29,527 nucleotides of DNA, taken from positions 1 through 29,527 of the forward strand of contig CAMUDX010000022.1 of assembly GCA_947087745.1 (NCBI GenBank), in the 5' to 3' direction. The position numbers and the translations under genes were made by a program. The stretch's first letter is position 1; every line of letters starts with the position of its first letter. This document shows positions 3,551 through 12,888 of this stretch, piece by piece. The notes beneath the pieces are model-generated. The model made no database searches, was not told the DNA's origin, and saw only the letters and a list, made by a program, of their open reading frames with translations. The DNA comes from an uncultured Clostridium sp. GTDB lineage: Bacteria > Bacillota > Clostridia > TANB77 > CAG-508.

Positions 3551-4552
3551 TTATTTAAATCTTATATCTTCTCCAAAGAAGTAATAAATATCATAGTATC
3601 CACCAATTCTAGAACATATGCGTTCTTCATATTTTCTTAGAATATCATTCATACTTAGATTTGTAGAAATAATTGTTTTAGTACATTTTGAATTTAAATT
3701 TAATAAACGAGCATTTAAAATAGTAAATAATTCACTTAGTTTCATAGTATTAATAAATTCAGTGCCTAAATCATCAATTATTAACAAATCAACATCTAAA
3801 ATACTCTTGTAAAATAAGTCTTGCTCAGAATTATTATATTTATTAAATTTATTATCAATAAGGGTTTCTAATAAAACAGGTGCTGTTTGATAAAGAACAC
3901 TATATCCCTTATTTAATATTTCTTTAGCAATACAATTAGTCATAAATGTTTTACCTAAACCAGTATTACCAGTGAATAATAAATTTTTATAGTCAGGATT
4001 ATTAAAGTTATCTACAAATTCTATACATTTATTCTTTATATTTAAAATGTTTGTTCTAGGTGATATATTTTGTTTATATTTAGCTAGATTTACTTCATTC
4101 GAAAACTTATTTTCATTAAAAGTAGAAAAGTTTTCTTTTTCTAGATTTGACATATTAGATTTATTATATGATATATTTAATAATTTTTGCTTTAAACAGT
4201 TACACATCTGAGTTCTATTATTTTCAAGAGTTATATATCCAGTATCATGACATACATTACATTCATATAATGGTCTTAAATATGATTCAGGTATATTATT
4301 ATCTAATAAAACTTGTTTCTTTCTGTTTTTTAGTTCTTGAATTTTTAAATTTATGTTGTTTAAGTTGTTAGAAGAATTAAGCAAAATATCTTTTGCAGAT
4401 TGTATAGAATAGCTGGTTAATTCTTCTTCAATTCGTTGTAATTCTGGTAAAGATTTATATAAATTATTTTTTCGTTTTTCTAAACCTAATTCTGATTTCA
4501 TTTTTTTTCGTTCGTATTCTTGTAACAAAGAATCTAAAACTTCATTAGCCAT
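3551..4552 (-). CDS. DnaI/DnaC-type replicative helicase loader (AAA+ ATPase with N-terminal zinc ribbon)
   Basis: Walker A GNTGLGKTF, Walker B LLIIDDLG and Cys cluster CNVCHDTGY...MCNC. The likely true start is the ATG at 4552 (MANEVLDS...), preceded by TGGAGGT; this is 27 nt inside the listed ORF. It overlaps the upstream gene's stop by 8 nt. Confidence 0.8.
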   Translation of the reverse strand: MANEVLDSLLQEYERKKMKSELGLEKRKNNLYKSLPELQRIEEELTSYSIQSAKDILLNSSNNLNNINLKIQELKNRKKQVLLDNNIPESYLRPLYECNVCHDTGYITLENNRTQMCNCLKQKLLNISYNKSNMSNLEKENFSTFNENKFSNEVNLAKYKQNISPRTNILNIKNKCIEFVDNFNNPDYKNLLFTGNTGLGKTFMTNCIAKEILNKGYSVLYQTAPVLLETLIDNKFNKYNNSEQDLFYKSILDVDLLIIDDLGTEFINTMKLSELFTILNARLLNLNSKCTKTIISTNLSMNDILRKYEERICSRIGGYYDIYYFFGEDIRFK

Positions 4553-5528
4553 TAGTACCTCCATTTTGTAAATTAGCATATAAGAAACTTAAATCATCAT
4601 AATGTCTTTGTTCAAAAGAAGCTTGCGATACCTGCTGATGTAATTTTTTCTCTTCCTGTTTTTGCTTTTTGCGTTGTTCTAAGAACGACTCAATTTCTTG
4701 AGGATTTTTTAAGTTTCTATCATGCCAGTCGCTAATAACATTATTCAAGTACTCAAATGTTGGAGCAGATTTTAAAGTTGTTCTTCTTAATGCTATTTCT
4801 ATACAACTCATATCATAGTTATATTCAAATAGCCACTTTTCAATATATGCTTCTTCATATTGAGTAAGAGAAGTATGTCTTCCTAATTTTTTTGCAATAT
4901 CTTTTTTTATTTTAACAAGTTTATCTTGTTTTTGATAATATATATCTAAATCATTCCAAGTCTGGATTTTGCTATTTCCCCAAGCTTCAGCCACTGCTTG
5001 TACATAATTTTTATGTAATGCTGAACGGTTAAAACAATAGTCAAATAATGCTATCATTACTTGGTCTTCAAAATTATATTTTTTAAACCATAAATCGATA
5101 TCACTATACCAAATAGGACTCATTATACCTTGGAAATATTTATTATTTATGCATTCTATAACTTTTGCCCTTGATTTATTTTTAGAAATTTCTTCAACTC
5201 TATTTGAATCAGTTTTTAAATTAGGGGAGTATAATCTATGCAATGTTAGTTCTTGTAAATCTGTTATTATATATCCATGTTCTTTTTTTGTAATTAAATT
5301 GTTTTCTTCTAAAAATGTTGTAGCTTCATTGATTGTTTTTAATGGTAATGACAATTTTTTTGATAAATCATTTAATTTAATATCTTTTTTATACTTAGCT
5401 AAAAATACTAGATATAGATATACTTTTGAATAATCACCTGGTAATTGTGATAAAAAATCTACAAAAAAAACATCTGGCAAAGCTGTTTGAGAAAAGAGAA
5501 ATGATTTCTCAGTGTTTTCTAATTTCAT
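4545..5528 (-). CDS. DnaD/DnaB-like replication initiation and helicase-loading protein (two DnaD C-terminal-type repeats)
   Basis: 327 aa. Two repeats of the W...Y...A...W pattern (IDLWFKKYNFEDQVMIALFDYC...AVAEAW and YIEKWLFEYNYDMSCIEIAL...YLNNVISDWHDRNL). It is translationally coupled to the loader ATPase, as in the B. subtilis dnaB-dnaI pair. SD TAGGGGGAA upstream. Confidence 0.75.
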   Translation of the reverse strand: MKLENTEKSFLFSQTALPDVFFVDFLSQLPGDYSKVYLYLVFLAKYKKDIKLNDLSKKLSLPLKTINEATTFLEENNLITKKEHGYIITDLQELTLHRLYSPNLKTDSNRVEEISKNKSRAKVIECINNKYFQGIMSPIWYSDIDLWFKKYNFEDQVMIALFDYCFNRSALHKNYVQAVAEAWGNSKIQTWNDLDIYYQKQDKLVKIKKDIAKKLGRHTSLTQYEEAYIEKWLFEYNYDMSCIEIALRRTTLKSAPTFEYLNNVISDWHDRNLKNPQEIESFLEQRKKQKQEEKKLHQQVSQASFEQRHYDDLSFLYANLQNGGTNG

Positions 5529-5587: not shown

Positions 5588-5887
5588 TTATAAAATTTTT
5601 CTAGGGACTTTCTTAAACACATATATTTTAGGTCTTGTAATATATCTAAACATATATTTTATTATATGTAATATGTTTTCTCCATTAAATCCAACTATAC
5701 TAAATATGAGAAGTGGAAAACATAACAGTATAAATAAAAATATTTTTATATTCAAATTTATTGATAATAAAGTTAAAATCAATAAAACAATAGAGTACCA
5801 TATAATATTTAAGATTGCAGTAGAATAATCGATAGTTCCTAGTAATTTAGTTTTAAAATTATAGTTTTGTGGAAATATAAATTTCAA
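5588..5887 (-). CDS. PrgI/TcpE-family (VirB3-like) small membrane protein
   Basis: 99 aa. N-terminal FP..Y.FKTKLLG segment, two adjacent TM helices and a basic tail GENILHIIKYMFRYITRPKIYVFKK, as in Gram-positive T4SS PrgI-family proteins. TTG start 7 nt after AGGAGGTGAT, which lies within the end of the upstream gene. Confidence 0.55.
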   Translation of the reverse strand: MKFIFPQNYNFKTKLLGTIDYSTAILNIIWYSIVLLILTLLSINLNIKIFLFILLCFPLLIFSIVGFNGENILHIIKYMFRYITRPKIYVFKKVPRKIL

Positions 5888-5891
5888 TATA

Positions 5892-6758
5892 TCACCTCCT
5901 AATTCCCACAGATTGTGAAATAGTTGTGGATATTCCTCCTATAAATTCACGAACAAAGGAGTTAGCTTTTATTAATGCATAAATTGCACCTATATATAGG
6001 AATTTTACCAATAGATTACCTGATGAGTAATCCATTGAAAATATTATTAATAAAACTAATGATACTATTATTTGTATAAAAAGTAATGAAAATAGATTTT
6101 TAATCCAGGACTTGAAAAACCAAGATGTAGAAGACAGTGATAATGATAATATTGCAAAGGGTGTAATTAATATAAAAATTTTTATCATAATAAATCTAAA
6201 AGAGTAAGAAAATATTAGGGATAGTAGAGATATAGAAAGAGTGGACTTTATTATTCCATCTAATGAGAATATATTTAATGTGCTAGAATCGATAGAAATA
6301 GTAGAGTTTATTTCATTTATTAAAGTAGAAAAACAAATTTGGGTATTAAATAAAGCTTCTCCTAAACTTCTTATTGATAATGTTATAGTAGAAAATAAGG
6401 ATAAGAATTGTTCAATTATAAAATATGAAAAGTTCATACATGTTCCACATATAACTAATTTAAATATAAATTGATAAGGTGACTCTAGCTGTAAGAAAGT
6501 AAGGTGTGCCATTAAATATTTTATAGAGTAATATAGTAAGAATCCTAATAAAAGTGAGTTGGAAATTAATAGTATTCCATCAGATACAGAAGGTCCAAAT
6601 ATTTTTTCAAAGTATTTATCTGTTAAAATATCTTCACTTATAAAAGTTATATCATCTAAAATATCATATAGGTTATTATCTATTGATGCAAATAGATTTT
6701 GAAGTATAGTGTTTATTGTATTTATAATGGTATCAGTTATATTAATTGAATCTTCCAA
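5892..6758 (-). CDS. VirB6/TrbL-like polytopic membrane protein
   Basis: 288 aa. Soluble acidic N-terminus followed by about 6 hydrophobic helices. Assigned from its position between the pilin-like and PrgI-like genes. TTG start just after GGAGGG. Confidence 0.5.
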   Translation of the reverse strand: MEDSINITDTIINTINTILQNLFASIDNNLYDILDDITFISEDILTDKYFEKIFGPSVSDGILLISNSLLLGFLLYYSIKYLMAHLTFLQLESPYQFIFKLVICGTCMNFSYFIIEQFLSLFSTITLSIRSLGEALFNTQICFSTLINEINSTISIDSSTLNIFSLDGIIKSTLSISLLSLIFSYSFRFIMIKIFILITPFAILSLSLSSTSWFFKSWIKNLFSLLFIQIIVSLVLLIIFSMDYSSGNLLVKFLYIGAIYALIKANSFVREFIGGISTTISQSVGIRR

Positions 6759-6766
6759 AAGCCCTC

Positions 6767-7096
6767 CTATGATATTAATGATTTTATTGTTGATAGAATT
6801 AAATCAGTAGCTAAAATAAAACCATAAGAAAATAAGGATCCTCTTATAATCTTTTTTCCTGTTTTAATTTTTTCTTCATCTCCAAAACTAAATTTTTTAA
6901 TAAATATACCTGAGCCGACAGCTACTGCTGCCGCAGGAGTAGCTAAATTTATAAGCCAACTAGAAATGTTTTCAAAGGCATTATTTATTTTTAATACTAA
7001 TTTGGGTGTAGCTGCTTGAACAGAAGAGCTTAGAAAAAATATAAGCAAAATAGAAATTATTACCATTTGTATAAAAAAATATTTCTTATTTTTCAT
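6767..7096 (-). CDS. VirB2/TrbC-like prepilin-type protein
   Basis: 109 aa. Signal peptide ending SSSVQA/AT, then a mature ~80-aa part with two hydrophobic helices separated by a charged loop (KKFSFGDEEKIKTGKK). ATG overlaps the upstream gene's end by 11 nt; SD AAAGGAGAA. Confidence 0.45.
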   Translation of the reverse strand: MKNKKYFFIQMVIISILLIFFLSSSVQAATPKLVLKINNAFENISSWLINLATPAAAVAVGSGIFIKKFSFGDEEKIKTGKKIIRGSLFSYGFILATDLILSTIKSLIS

Positions 7097-8801
7097 TATT
7101 TTCTCCTTTCGTTTTTATAAAGTATGGAAACATTTTTATTGTACAGGGCTTTAATATTTTTGTTCCATTTGATAAAAATGCAAGGCAATGAAATGTTTCT
7201 AAATTTTGAGAAAAATAGTTAGTATCATATATAAAATCATTTTGTGTATATGTGTTATAACTTTCTGATACATTAGAGTCTTGAGAATTGAATGTATTTG
7301 TTATATAACTAAATTTTGTGGTTTTTGCACTTTCAGAAATACTTTGTGAAATCTTTTCTTTTTCTTCTTTCCCTAGTTGTTTTTGTGCTTCTTCGATAGT
7401 AAAAATGTCATCTGTTCTAAACCAAATTTTGTTTATTAGATTTTGAATGATTACTTTTGTAGAGGTATCATCATGTAATGTATTTTTTAGAGATGAATAG
7501 CTTTGAGTACTTACAATGTTGATACATTTTGCTTCCCTACTTAAAGAAAAAAATTGACTATCTGATTTTGTAGCATATTCTGCATATTCATCACATATAA
7601 AAGCTGTTTTCTTTCGTATATTTTTTGATAAACTTGAAAGAATTTCTGTTTGAAAATCTAGTTTTAGATATGCAGCTATTATTTTAGACAAATTTTTATA
7701 TTCTGATATATTCATATTTAATATTACAATTTTGCCATTTTTAATAGTATCTTCGAAACCTGTAAATGTTAGGTCCTCTTCTTGCGGGCAGAAGGCTTTG
7801 GAGATATCATAATCTGAAATAAATACATTTGTTATTCTACTAATTTCTGATTTTAGAATAGATAAAGTTCTTTGGTCTAATGAGAATAATTCTCTTTGAA
7901 AGAATTCTAAAGATGAATTCAAATTATATACATCTTGAACAGAAAATTTGGACTGAATAAATAAGTTCCTTAATTTTTCTATTTGCTCTTTATAGTAGTT
8001 TGGTAATGTTACTAATTTGTGAATTTCAGTAAAATTTACATATCCATTATTATATAATCTACATAGTTTTATACATTCTGTTAATATTTGTTCTGCTTTA
8101 TCTAACCAATAGGATTCTTGATTATTTTCTGAAAATAATTCTAATATAGTTCTAAGCCTATTTGCTAAGACTTGAGGCCTTAAATGAGGTTTGTGTAAAG
8201 GGTTATAACATACATTAGAATGTAATTCTATTATTATTAAATCATCTGTTAAATTAAAGTTTTTTGCATATTTTTTAACTTGTTCATAGTAATTTCCTTT
8301 TACATCTAGTATAAGCATTCCTATTTTGTCATTTGGATTATTAGAGTTATATTCTAATAATTGTTCTGTAAATGGGTACATGGCAGAACTTGTTTTACCT
8401 GAGCCTATTGTTCCTGTGATTAAAAAATTTTGATATAAACCTGATTCAGGGATATAAATTTTTGATTTAGATTTAATTTCGTCTCCAATTAATAAATTTA
8501 ATTTAGTTTGAGGGGTATTATTAATGATTTTTTTATAAGAATTTTTGTTGAATTTTTTAAATATACTATTATAAATAAAATTTGATATTATTGTGTTAGA
8601 AAATATAAAAGTAATTATAAAAGTTTTTTTAATTATATTCCATAATGTTGGATTTGTATCACATATATTAAATGGATGGATACCATAGGTTATAATAATT
8701 TGTTTTGCTTTAAAAATAGGTAAAAATGTAATAATCCCTAATAAAAAACATATTATTAGAAATACTAATATAAAAGTGAGTCTTTTTAGATGACTTTTTA
8801 T
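7086..8801 (-). CDS. type IV coupling protein (VirD4/TraG/TraD family ATPase), extended N-terminus, probable ATA start
   Basis: The listed ORF (7086-8381) starts at an internal Met. The same frame stays open up to 8846 and encodes two TM helices (LTFILVFLIICFLLGIITFLPIF and FIITFIFSNTIISNFIY) plus Walker A LITGTIGSGKTSSAM. Downstream are Walker B AFICDEYAEY and the REAKCINIVSTQSYSSL motif. There is no ATG/GTG/TTG in frame between 8382 and 8846. AAGGAGG sits 8 nt before the ATA at 8801-8799. Confidence 0.75.
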   Translation of the reverse strand: MKSHLKRLTFILVFLIICFLLGIITFLPIFKAKQIIITYGIHPFNICDTNPTLWNIIKKTFIITFIFSNTIISNFIYNSIFKKFNKNSYKKIINNTPQTKLNLLIGDEIKSKSKIYIPESGLYQNFLITGTIGSGKTSSAMYPFTEQLLEYNSNNPNDKIGMLILDVKGNYYEQVKKYAKNFNLTDDLIIIELHSNVCYNPLHKPHLRPQVLANRLRTILELFSENNQESYWLDKAEQILTECIKLCRLYNNGYVNFTEIHKLVTLPNYYKEQIEKLRNLFIQSKFSVQDVYNLNSSLEFFQRELFSLDQRTLSILKSEISRITNVFISDYDISKAFCPQEEDLTFTGFEDTIKNGKIVILNMNISEYKNLSKIIAAYLKLDFQTEILSSLSKNIRKKTAFICDEYAEYATKSDSQFFSLSREAKCINIVSTQSYSSLKNTLHDDTSTKVIIQNLINKIWFRTDDIFTIEEAQKQLGKEEKEKISQSISESAKTTKFSYITNTFNSQDSNVSESYNTYTQNDFIYDTNYFSQNLETFHCLAFLSNGTKILKPCTIKMFPYFIKTKGENNEK

Positions 8802-8947
8802 TGAGTAAACCTCCTTATCTTTAATTTTAATTTTGAACCTTGTTGGTTATGGAAAATTTTTATTTCAAAAAATGTATAAATTGAATATAAAGTTATTAGA
8901 ATATTAATAAAATAGACTATAAAAAATATATCGACTAATTTAAAAAT
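8798..8947 (-). CDS. small single-pass membrane protein (49 codons), probable ATT start
   Basis: Not in the ORF track. AAGGTGGTGA (one mismatch to AAGGAGGTGA) lies 7 nt before the ATT at 8947-8945. Translation: (M)FKLVDIFFIVYFINILITLYSIYTFFEIKIFHNQQGSKLKLKIRRFTQ. Its TAA overlaps the ATA of the coupling-protein gene, forming ATAA. Confidence 0.35.
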   Translation of the reverse strand: MFKLVDIFFIVYFINILITLYSIYTFFEIKIFHNQQGSKLKLKIRRFTQ

Positions 8948-8970
8948 GTTTTCACCACCTTGCTTTTTGG

Positions 8971-8999
8971 ATAATATAACAATTTTTTTTATTTGTCTA
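8971..8999 (-). promoter_or_regulatory. candidate sigma-A promoter for the T4SS-like operon
   Basis: The bottom strand reads TAGACA (8999-8994), a 17-bp spacer, then TATTAT (8976-8971), about 10-20 nt upstream of the SD at 8951-8960. Confidence 0.45.
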
Positions 9000-9055: not shown

Positions 9056-9093
9056 ATTATAATATTTTATAAGATTTGAAAGGGGATGAAAGT

Positions 9094-9279
9094 ATGAAAT
9101 TTAACAAAGATACACAAATCGGAGAATTATTAGAAGTTGCTCCAGAAAAGGCAGAAATATTATTAGAAGCTGGAATGCATTGCCTAGGATGTCCTGCCTC
9201 ACAAATGGAAACATTAGAGGAAGCATGTGAAGTACATGAAATAGATGTAAACGAGTTATTAAAAAAGCTAAATGCGTAA
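9094..9279 (+). CDS. DUF1858 / hybrid-cluster-protein-associated redox disulfide domain protein
   Basis: 61 aa with the GMHCLGCP motif. The ATG at 9094 follows AAAGGGGA by 7 nt, so the listed TTG at 9076 is unlikely to be the start. Confidence 0.7.
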   Translation: MKFNKDTQIGELLEVAPEKAEILLEAGMHCLGCPASQMETLEEACEVHEIDVNELLKKLNA

Positions 9280-9413: not shown

Positions 9414-9489
9414 GGGCTATTAGCTCAGGTGGTAGAGCACTTGACTTTTAATCAAGTTGTCCCGCGTTCGAGTCGCGGATAGCTCACCA
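9414..9489 (+). tRNA. tRNA-Lys (anticodon UUU)
   Basis: 76 nt cloverleaf. Acceptor GGGCTAT/ATAGCTC, anticodon loop CTTTTAA, T-arm CCGCG-TTCGAGT-CGCGG, encoded CCA. Confidence 0.95.
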
Positions 9490-9492
9490 AAA

Positions 9493-9518
9493 TGAATATT
9501 GATGTACATCAATATTCA
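9493..9518. repeat. 26-bp perfect palindrome in the tRNA-Lys/tRNA-Glu spacer
   Basis: TGAATATTGATGT|ACATCAATATTCA is its own reverse complement. Confidence 0.9.
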
Positions 9519-9526
9519 CTATATAA

Positions 9527-9601
9527 GGCCCCTTGGTCAAGCGGTTAAGACATCGCCCTTTCACGGCGGAGACATGGGTTCGATTCCCGTAGGGGTCACC
9601 A
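9527..9601 (+). tRNA. tRNA-Glu (anticodon UUC)
   Basis: 75 nt. Acceptor GGCCCCT/AGGGGTC, anticodon loop CTTTCAC, T-loop TTCGATT, encoded CCA. Confidence 0.95.
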
Positions 9602-9605
9602 AAAT

Positions 9606-9681
<76 letters not shown>

Positions 9682-12812: not shown

Positions 12813-12888
12813 GGCTCATTAGCTCAGCTGGTAGAGCAACAGACTCTTAATCTGGAGGTCCTCGGTTCGAACCCGAGATGAGTCACCA
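12813..12888 (+). tRNA. tRNA-Lys (anticodon CUU)
   Basis: 76 nt. Acceptor GGCTCAT/ATGAGTC, anticodon loop CTCTTAA, T-arm CTCGG-TTCGAAC-CCGAG, encoded CCA. Confidence 0.93.

Follow-up and report, generated by a model that had tools for sequence, protein, structure and literature searches.

Probable ATT and ATA start codons, each behind a strong Shine-Dalgarno sequence, in the first two genes of a type IV secretion-like operon of uncultured gut Clostridia

The stretch of DNA analysed here, 29,527 nucleotides of an uncultured Clostridium sp. of the TANB77 lineage (contig CAMUDX010000022.1, positions 1 to 29,527; the whole stretch is referred to below as the window), carries on its minus strand an operon that opens with a small open reading frame (ORF) and a gene for an ATPase resembling the coupling proteins of type IV secretion systems (T4SSs). 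Both genes lack a canonical start codon (ATG, GTG or TTG) and appear to be initiated instead at ATT and ATA respectively, each behind a strong Shine-Dalgarno (SD) sequence, as an earlier note written from the letters of this DNA had proposed. The G+C content of the region is 21-25%, and the features that bear directly on the two starts are as follows.

8952-8961, minus strand: SD site of the small ORF, AAGGTGGTGA, a 9/10 match to AAGGAGGTGA
8798-8947, minus strand: small ORF of 49 codons plus TAA, with a putative ATT start at 8947-8945, encoding one hydrophobic helix and a basic tail
8809-8816, minus strand: SD site of the ATPase gene, AAGGAGGT, lying within the 3' end of the small ORF
7086-8801, minus strand: T4SS coupling-protein-like ATPase (assigned by Pfam), 571 codons plus stop, with a putative ATA start at 8801-8799
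8570-8798, minus strand: N-terminal membrane hairpin of the ATPase, two long helices (about residues 2-30 and 50-87), from the translation and an AlphaFold model
8385-8414, minus strand: Walker A loop GTIGSGKTSS, upstream of the mis-called Met 8381, from the translation

The ATPase frame is open from 8846 to 7086, the first in-frame stop upstream being the TAA at 8849-8847. A scripted walk along the minus strand found no ATG, GTG or TTG among the 155 sense codons upstream of the ATG at 8381-8379, which bears out the observation that the frame has no canonical start and an SD sequence 8 nt ahead of an ATA: AAGGAGG(T) occupies 8816-8810(09), and the 8-nt spacer TTTACTCA leads from it to the ATA at 8801-8799. 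A start at Met 8381 would indeed delete the transmembrane helices and the Walker A loop, as both are encoded upstream of that codon. Canonical start codons make up 3.2% of the coding codons of the window, and the probability of meeting none in 140 codons is about 0.01; such codon-usage figures, taken alone, are only suggestive, and on the sequences compared here they are by far outweighed by the fact that about 60 other species have an SD sequence followed by ATA or ATT at the corresponding site. The earlier note was also right that gene callers mis-annotate this gene, the public call on this contig being a truncation of 431 amino acids; the same annotation leaves the small ORF uncalled and about 700 nt without annotation. 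Called lengths in close relatives are 419, 431, 452, 471, 500 and 565 amino acids, a spread that follows the typical pattern of mis-called start sites.

The relatives were 80 loci (L001-L080), one per species, from a single scan of a species-representative genome collection, and the complete chromosomes among them are of about 1.55 Mb; a protein search returned thousands of ATPase homologues from uncultured gut 'Clostridia bacterium' genomes. The start codon of the ATPase, counted in 79 species, is ATA in 39, ATT in 25, ATG in nine and TTG in six, and is thus near-cognate in 64 (81%). Most orthologues have a strong SD sequence 6-9 nt ahead of an in-frame ATA or ATT, and the codon after the near-cognate start is AAA in 48 of the 64. 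When the N-termini are aligned, the MKKRLLF..., LKKLLF... and MKKRFLF... of species with ATG or TTG begin at the same codon as the (I)KRFIF... and (I)KKLFF... of species with ATA or ATT; the comparison of orthologues, put forward beforehand as a check, therefore shows ATA and ATT kept clade-wide at the codon where basal relatives have ATG or TTG. An in-frame stop stands directly 5' of the ATA in three species (L002, L005 and L009), so their ATPase cannot start further upstream. Downstream, 13 of the 64 near-cognate orthologues have no canonical codon before Walker A, and use of the first canonical codon as the start would cost a median of 48 codons. The ratio of non-synonymous to synonymous substitution rates (dN/dS) between the start and Walker A is 0.08-0.43 in 13 species pairs, which argues that the N-terminal region is translated. 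Initiation of the ATPase at ATA is strongly supported by homology as well as by SD spacing, and the ATA at 8801-8799 is very probably its true start.

An artefact or a decaying locus (an assembly error, a pseudogene, a soluble ATPase made from Met 8381, or a fusion of the small ORF with the ATPase by frameshifting) would also leave a frame with no canonical start; in its favour there are only that absence and an orthologue, at L043, that looks disrupted, and we consider it extremely unlikely. The same ATT, ATA and SD sites are present in contigs from four other samples (one European Nucleotide Archive assembly and three Logan assemblies) with 93-100% ATPase identity, and these independent assemblies, by showing the same bases, dispose of an assembly error at the start codons, a possibility that the earlier note had raised. 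Moreover, the near-cognate starts are kept in about 60 species, with purifying selection on the genes, and the Walker A sequence GTIGSGKTSS, which lies upstream of Met 8381, is invariant in the alignment of homologues. A frameshift fusion was considered and rejected, as no slippery heptamer of the form X XXY YYZ precedes the TAA, and several species have in-frame stops or long, variable spacers between the two genes. As for the L043 locus itself, its ATPase frame (L043:4001-5596) is open for just 98 codons before Walker A and no small ORF was found there; it may contain a frameshift, a pseudogene or an assembly error.

A recent loss of start codons, another possibility raised in the earlier note, is refuted by the relatives. 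The tree of the 79 species, built by neighbour-joining and read by parsimony, places canonical-start species mostly at the base and unites those with ATA or ATT in one large clade, which makes the near-cognate state ancient and clade-wide; with midpoint rooting it gives about ten switches between ATA and ATT and two reversions to ATG, in L033 and L037.

The small ORF presents a similar picture. Its frame is open from 9037 and the script found no ATG, GTG or TTG in it, and AAGGTGGTGA was found at 8961-8952, in agreement with the description of an upstream hydrophobic ORF of 49 codons that has no canonical start and an SD sequence before an ATT. The ATT at 8947-8945 lies 7 nt past the GGTGG core of AAGGTGGTGA and 4 nt past the end of this 10-mer, and the TAA stop at 8800-8798 overlaps the ATA of the ATPase (ATAA). 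The window's codon usage gives a chance of about 0.2 of finding no canonical codon in 49 codons. Across species the SD sequence is kept as AAGG(T/C)GGTGA(T), 7-8 nt (counted from the GGTGG core) before ATA or ATT, with a median predicted anti-SD duplex energy of -13.1 kcal/mol. Conservation of the protein extends to about 75 loci (...LINIFFIxxIINxFITLYSIYTFFDxKIFHNxQGSKLK...), with dN/dS of 0.09-0.47. Start codons could be counted at 76 loci: counting back 35 codons from the conserved QG, one finds ATA in 29, ATT in 16, and ATG or TTG in eight, so that 45 of the 76 (about 60%) carry ATA or ATT at the homologous position; a further ten have an ATG two codons upstream and 13 have no clear start. 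Twelve species, including that of the window, have no canonical codon anywhere in the frame, and a stop lies just upstream of the ATT or ATA in L001, L004, L010 and L044.

The strength of the SD sequence varies with the identity of the start codon. The anti-SD duplex predicted for the ATPase gene has a median energy of -12.2 kcal/mol where the start is ATA or ATT and of -5.9 kcal/mol where it is ATG or TTG (Mann-Whitney p = 6e-7, uncorrected for phylogeny), against reference medians of -10.6 kcal/mol for other genes of the operon and -1.3 kcal/mol for random positions; the two ATG revertants, L033 and L037, have a weak SD sequence or none. This pattern would fit selection on the overall rate of initiation, and a weak codon behind a strong SD sequence, or a strong codon behind a weak one, seem to be two ways of arriving at modest expression. 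What the sequences themselves show is where the starts lie, that they are conserved, that SD strength compensates for the codon and that the coding sequence is under purifying selection.

Several points weigh against this reading. The numbers of start-codon switches are parsimony counts from a simple, midpoint-rooted neighbour-joining tree, and the statistics of SD strength, besides their lack of phylogenetic correction, draw on start picks that were partly guided by the SD sequence. For the small ORF, 65 of 77 loci have some in-frame canonical codon upstream, often a GTG GTG inside the SD-like AAGGTGGTGA, or a TTG or ATG six codons upstream with no SD sequence. In one sub-clade (L054, L055, L060, L064, L065, L067, L069, L077, L079 and L080) the codon homologous to the start is AAA or GTT, and there the only start candidates nearby are the GTG GTG in the SD-like motif. 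Since the GTG GTG and the upstream TTG or ATG do not keep a constant reading frame between species, we regard them as incidental. A GTG inside AAGGTGGTGA was rejected as the general start of the small ORF, given that its frame shifts between species with the SD spacing (7 versus 8 nt) and that it has no SD sequence of its own; in individual species it is possible. In strains 93% identical to the window (L082-L084) the ATT is preceded in frame, at a distance of six codons or about 20 nt, by an ATG that immediately follows a -10-like box and has no SD sequence. Gene callers begin an ORF of 55 amino acids there; this ATG could be a leaderless-type start or incidental. The case for the start of the small ORF is weaker than that for the ATPase, and on sequence comparison we take the ATT at 8947-8945 to be probably the true one.

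The ATAA overlap raises the question of whether the ATPase is made mainly by termination-reinitiation, in which case the identity of its start codon would matter little. Besides the overlap in the window, the stop of the small ORF is no more than 8 nt from the ATPase start in about 50 of 77 loci, 13 of which have the same +1 overlap. The stop-to-start distance nevertheless varies between species, from +2 to about -80 nt, and in about 25 loci the stop lies 12-80 nt upstream, where the ATPase still keeps its ATT or ATA and a strong SD sequence of its own. Because the distance is variable and the ATPase has its own SD sequence everywhere, coupling would be optional at most. The small ORF, as the first gene on the mRNA, also uses ATT or ATA and cannot be coupled to anything upstream, and reinitiation is itself sensitive to initiation factor 3 (IF3; PMC2268962). 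We therefore regard reinitiation as the main source of the ATPase as quite improbable; of the earlier suggestion of coupling, what stands is that the overlap is present here and may contribute, and what falls is that it would account for the start, the overlap not being conserved and the ATPase having its own SD sequence.

The remaining genes of the operon and its surroundings are listed below; g109, g288 and g99 are named by the length of their products.

8971-8999, minus strand: promoter-like TAGACA-17 nt-TATTAT, score 10/12
6767-7096, minus strand: g109, a VirB2/T4SS-pilin-like membrane protein of 109 amino acids, ATG start (Pfam T4SS_pilin and TrbC, below the gathering score)
5892-6758, minus strand: g288, a polytopic VirB6/TrbL-like protein of 288 amino acids, TTG start (Pfam TrbL, below the gathering score)
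5588-5887, minus strand: g99, a PrgI/VirB3-like protein of 99 amino acids, TTG start (Pfam PrgI, below the gathering score)
4545-5528, minus strand: DnaD-like gene, directly downstream of the T4SS-like module
3551-4579, minus strand: DnaC/DnaI-like gene, directly downstream of the DnaD-like gene

The ATPase scores 47.7 bits against Pfam TrwB_AAD_bind (cut-off 20.5) and 29.9 against TraG-D_C (cut-off 22). Its AlphaFold model (predicted local distance difference test score, pLDDT, 67) opens with two long helices, H2-30 and H50-87, and a Foldseek search with this model finds, among its best matches, Cag-beta, TrwB and DotL at E values of 1e-7 to 1e-6 and template modelling (TM) scores of 0.4-0.5, with HerA and VirB4 ranking after them. 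The PDB, searched by sequence with the ATPase by itself and with a profile of 13 sequences, yielded no type IV coupling protein, the sole match being a weak one to DptH. Among orthologues of the pilin-like protein, Pfam T4SS_pilin matches 30 of 31 (best E value 8e-6) and TrbC 14 of 31; TrbL matches 18 of 31 orthologues of the VirB6-like protein (best E value 3.8e-5), and PrgI 12 of 29 of the VirB3-like protein (best E value 6e-4), all below the gathering score. Neither VirB4 nor a relaxase was found in the operon or in the 29.5-kb window. The operon is not a complete conjugative or effector T4SS, as the VirB2-, VirB6- and VirB3-like matches are below cut-off and the locus has no VirB4; the label of a T4SS-like operon given to it earlier is fair as regards the coupling-protein-like ATPase and its VirB2-, VirB6- and VirB3-like neighbours, but falls short for lack of VirB4 and relaxase.

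Gene order is near-invariant in the 80 loci (a DUF1858 gene on the opposite strand, the small ORF, the ATPase, g109, g288, g99, DnaD, DnaC and a gyrA-like gene); the operon is chromosomal and vertically inherited and not a mobile element. In about 65-69 of the 80 species DnaD and DnaC keep their place beside the module, and the synteny of the module itself (the small ORF with the VirD4-, VirB2-, VirB6- and PrgI/VirB3-like genes, and with no VirB4 or relaxase) is kept as part of the core chromosome in about 75-80, whose genomes are of roughly 1.5 Mb. A megablast of the operon against a plasmid collection gave no match and so lends no support to a mobile element. In the window the divergent DUF1858 gene is at 9076-9279 on the plus strand, and just past it are a tRNA-Lys(UUU)/tRNA-Glu/tRNA-Thr cluster (9414-9681) and a tRNA-Lys(CUU) (12813-12888); no sign of an integrated element was seen at these tRNAs, and an Rfam scan of the window returned four tRNAs only, with no leader or riboswitch near the ATT and ATA starts. 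The DnaC/DnaI-like ORF is listed from an ATG at 4579, which gives it a 35-nt overlap with the DnaD-like gene; an ATG at about 4552 (MANEV...), with GGAGGT 5 nt upstream, is the likelier start. A scan for promoters and terminators gave no more hits than expected by chance in an AT-rich region, and the TAGACA/TATTAT block carries weight only because it is conserved across species: TATAGACAAA...TGTTGTATTAT, resembling -35 and -10 elements, precedes the small ORF in the majority of the related loci. A promoter at 8971-8999 would give a very short leader ahead of the SD sequence.

The peculiarity of the first two genes can be set against the rest of the operon, whose members start with ATG, TTG and TTG as had been described, and against the window as a whole, in which every other credible gene starts with ATG, TTG or GTG, usually behind an SD sequence. 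In a survey of 283 other long ORFs across the 80 loci, the start behind an SD sequence of at least 6 nt is ATG in 86 cases, TTG in 19 and GTG in four; 20 near-cognate picks among the other long ORFs are mostly artefacts, with two or three credible. Downstream in the operon, g109 starts with ATG in 59 loci and TTG in 11, g288 with TTG in 36 and ATG in 29, g99 with ATG in 59, and DnaD with ATG in 65 of 68. Clade-wide ATA and ATT starts thus appear, on this comparison, to be limited to the ATPase and the small ORF only.

Sporadic ATA or ATT codons behind a strong SD sequence do occur elsewhere, in g109 (L007:2109, L015:5695, L016:2842 and L022:4990), in g99 (L003:3405, L005:3651 and L037:6946), in a homologue of the gene at 82-810 of the window (L013:2620) and in a sortase-like gene (L032:463 and L039:464); one such protein reads IKFIFPQNYNF where its relatives have MKFIFPQNYNF. 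Being confined to single species or small clades, they indicate that the lineage tolerates near-cognate starts at a low background rate. They could also be taken to mean that start choice is relaxed throughout the lineage, through an altered IF3, initiator tRNA or ribosome, so that ATA and ATT are ordinary starts genome-wide, yet we find this very hard to credit given that the other genes of the 29.5-kb window are all canonical, that the long ORFs with strong SD sequences in the 80 loci overwhelmingly use ATG, TTG or GTG, and that DnaD is so consistently ATG.

The same sporadic starts, together with the two reversions to ATG, also speak for the main open alternative, namely that the weak starts of the two genes are tolerated and not selected. 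AT-biased mutation in a lineage of 25% G+C would decay ATG to ATA or ATT, a near-neutral change if the strong SD sequence rescues initiation and the level of expression is under weak selection. Toleration of this kind does not readily explain why such starts are fixed clade-wide in exactly two adjacent genes (the ATPase in 81% of species, the small ORF in about 60%), when other genes whose SD sequences are just as strong have them at no more than a few percent, nor why SD strength tracks the identity of the start codon, revertants included, which looks like stabilizing selection on the initiation rate. For these reasons we think toleration unlikely, and lean towards the view that the near-cognate starts serve to hold expression low.

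Comparable starts have been described in other bacteria. Ribo-RET profiling of Staphylococcus aureus (2026) found conserved AUU (cvfC1) and AUA (ccpN, infC, citZ) starts, all with an extended SD sequence; expression from them is around 10% of that from AUG and reaches 30%, and that of the ccpN AUA start is 10% to 30% of AUG depending on the growth medium (PMC13009471). The classic examples are Escherichia coli infC, with an AUU start through which IF3 autoregulates, and pcnB, with an AUU start that limits its translation (PMC2268962, PMC13009471). The genes described here resemble ccpN of S. aureus and Bacillus subtilis (AUA) and cvfC1 of S. aureus (AUU), which are likewise from Firmicutes, have long, well-spaced SD sequences and conserve the identity of the start between species; like cvfC1, the small ORF encodes a small protein and is the first gene of its operon. 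They differ in being two consecutive genes, in their conservation across a deeper clade (to about 55% ATPase identity) with repeated swaps between ATA and ATT, and in encoding membrane proteins of a T4SS-like module and not regulators; they are known from sequence, whereas output was measured for ccpN and cvfC1. With infC and pcnB they share a near-cognate start, of the kind that in E. coli, as AUU, limits expression under IF3 discrimination, but AUA is used here as well and the SD sequences are much stronger and of the Gram-positive type. Neither product, a 49-amino acid membrane protein and a coupling-protein-like ATPase, is IF3, so there is no autoregulatory loop of the infC type. As to the overlap, the 4-nt ATAA recalls the ATGA and TAATG of coupled genes, and similar arrangements are found in many relatives; unlike in those cases the start is ATA and the overlap is not conserved across the clade. 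The ATPase itself is like TrwB, VirD4/Cag-beta, DotL and TraD in having an N-terminal membrane hairpin followed by a P-loop domain with Walker A and B motifs, Pfam scores above cut-off and VirB2-, VirB6- and VirB3-like neighbours, and unlike the T4SS coupling proteins in being a core chromosomal gene in about 80 species, with no relaxase or VirB4 in the operon and with DnaD- and DnaI-like genes following. We found nothing specific in the literature on T4SSs in TANB77 or on ATT and ATA starts in Clostridia.

By analogy, both genes would join infC, pcnB, ccpN and cvfC1 in the class with a conserved AUU or AUA start behind a strong SD sequence, and would share its lower output and IF3 sensitivity. 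Among the explanations offered at the outset, the published cases (PMC13009471) lend most support, as analogues, to low or IF3-sensitive expression; reduced expression, discrimination by IF3 and an adaptive value are what we infer. A more elaborate possibility is that AUU and AUA act as an IF3-sensing switch, both proteins rising when IF3 activity falls or growth conditions change. Discrimination by IF3 against AUU and AUA and the inhibition of non-canonical starts by excess IF3 (PMC2268962), the dependence of ccpN output on medium (PMC13009471), and the fact that the feature is common to two consecutive genes are all in keeping with it, but the sequence does not separate a switch from constitutive attenuation and the Rfam scan of the window found no regulatory RNA, and we hold the switch to be doubtful.

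We consider it likely that both genes are real and that SD-directed initiation, at AUU in the small ORF and AUA in the ATPase, sets low expression. The 30S subunit would be placed by a strong, well-spaced SD sequence (AAGGTGGTGA for the small ORF; AAGGAGGT, 8 nt upstream, for the ATPase), and the initiator fMet-tRNA would pair with two of the three bases of the start codon, so that each protein would begin with methionine and not isoleucine. The combination of a weak start with a strong SD sequence would make initiation precise yet attenuated, at perhaps 10-30% of the AUG level if the closest published cases are a guide, and would hold both leading products of the operon below those of the genes that follow them on this strand; translational coupling through the ATAA overlap may contribute, though it would not be required. 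This arrangement was probably fixed in the ancestor of a large clade of gut Clostridia with reduced genomes, and would have been kept since, with repeated swaps between ATA and ATT and rare returns to ATG.

A more speculative extension, to which we give little credence, is that the paired AUU and AUA starts are a selected, IF3-responsive control of the dosage of a previously undescribed core-genome machine. Such a machine might consist of an orphan VirD4-VirB2-VirB6-VirB3-like module with a dedicated partner of 49 amino acids, vertically inherited in each species of a clade of gut Clostridia with reduced genomes and placed directly upstream of the DnaD/DnaI replication initiators, although we would put this forward only tentatively; equally conjectural is a role outside conjugation, such as the uptake or export of DNA or the handling of the chromosome.

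The mechanism of initiation at such codons is already known; what sets this case apart is the depth of conservation, the pairing of the genes and the nature of the products, which belong to an orphan T4SS-like module. The practical consequence is that public entries of the ATPase family are truncated at the N-terminus by 3 to 180 residues, because Prodigal-type callers cannot use ATA or ATT; in 13 of 64 species the membrane anchor and Walker A are lost from the public entries, the conserved gene for the 49-amino acid protein is usually uncalled, and predictions of domains, topology and structure made from the truncated entries are wrong. The two genes offer a natural example of weak starts kept over a long time, in adjacent genes of about 60 species, with toggling between ATA and ATT and rare return to ATG. 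They would widen a rule recently described in the Firmicutes, that of an extended SD sequence with a non-canonical start, so that it takes in uncultured gut Clostridia as well as membrane and secretion proteins, and they draw attention to a conserved chromosomal T4SS-like module in common bacteria of the human and animal gut.

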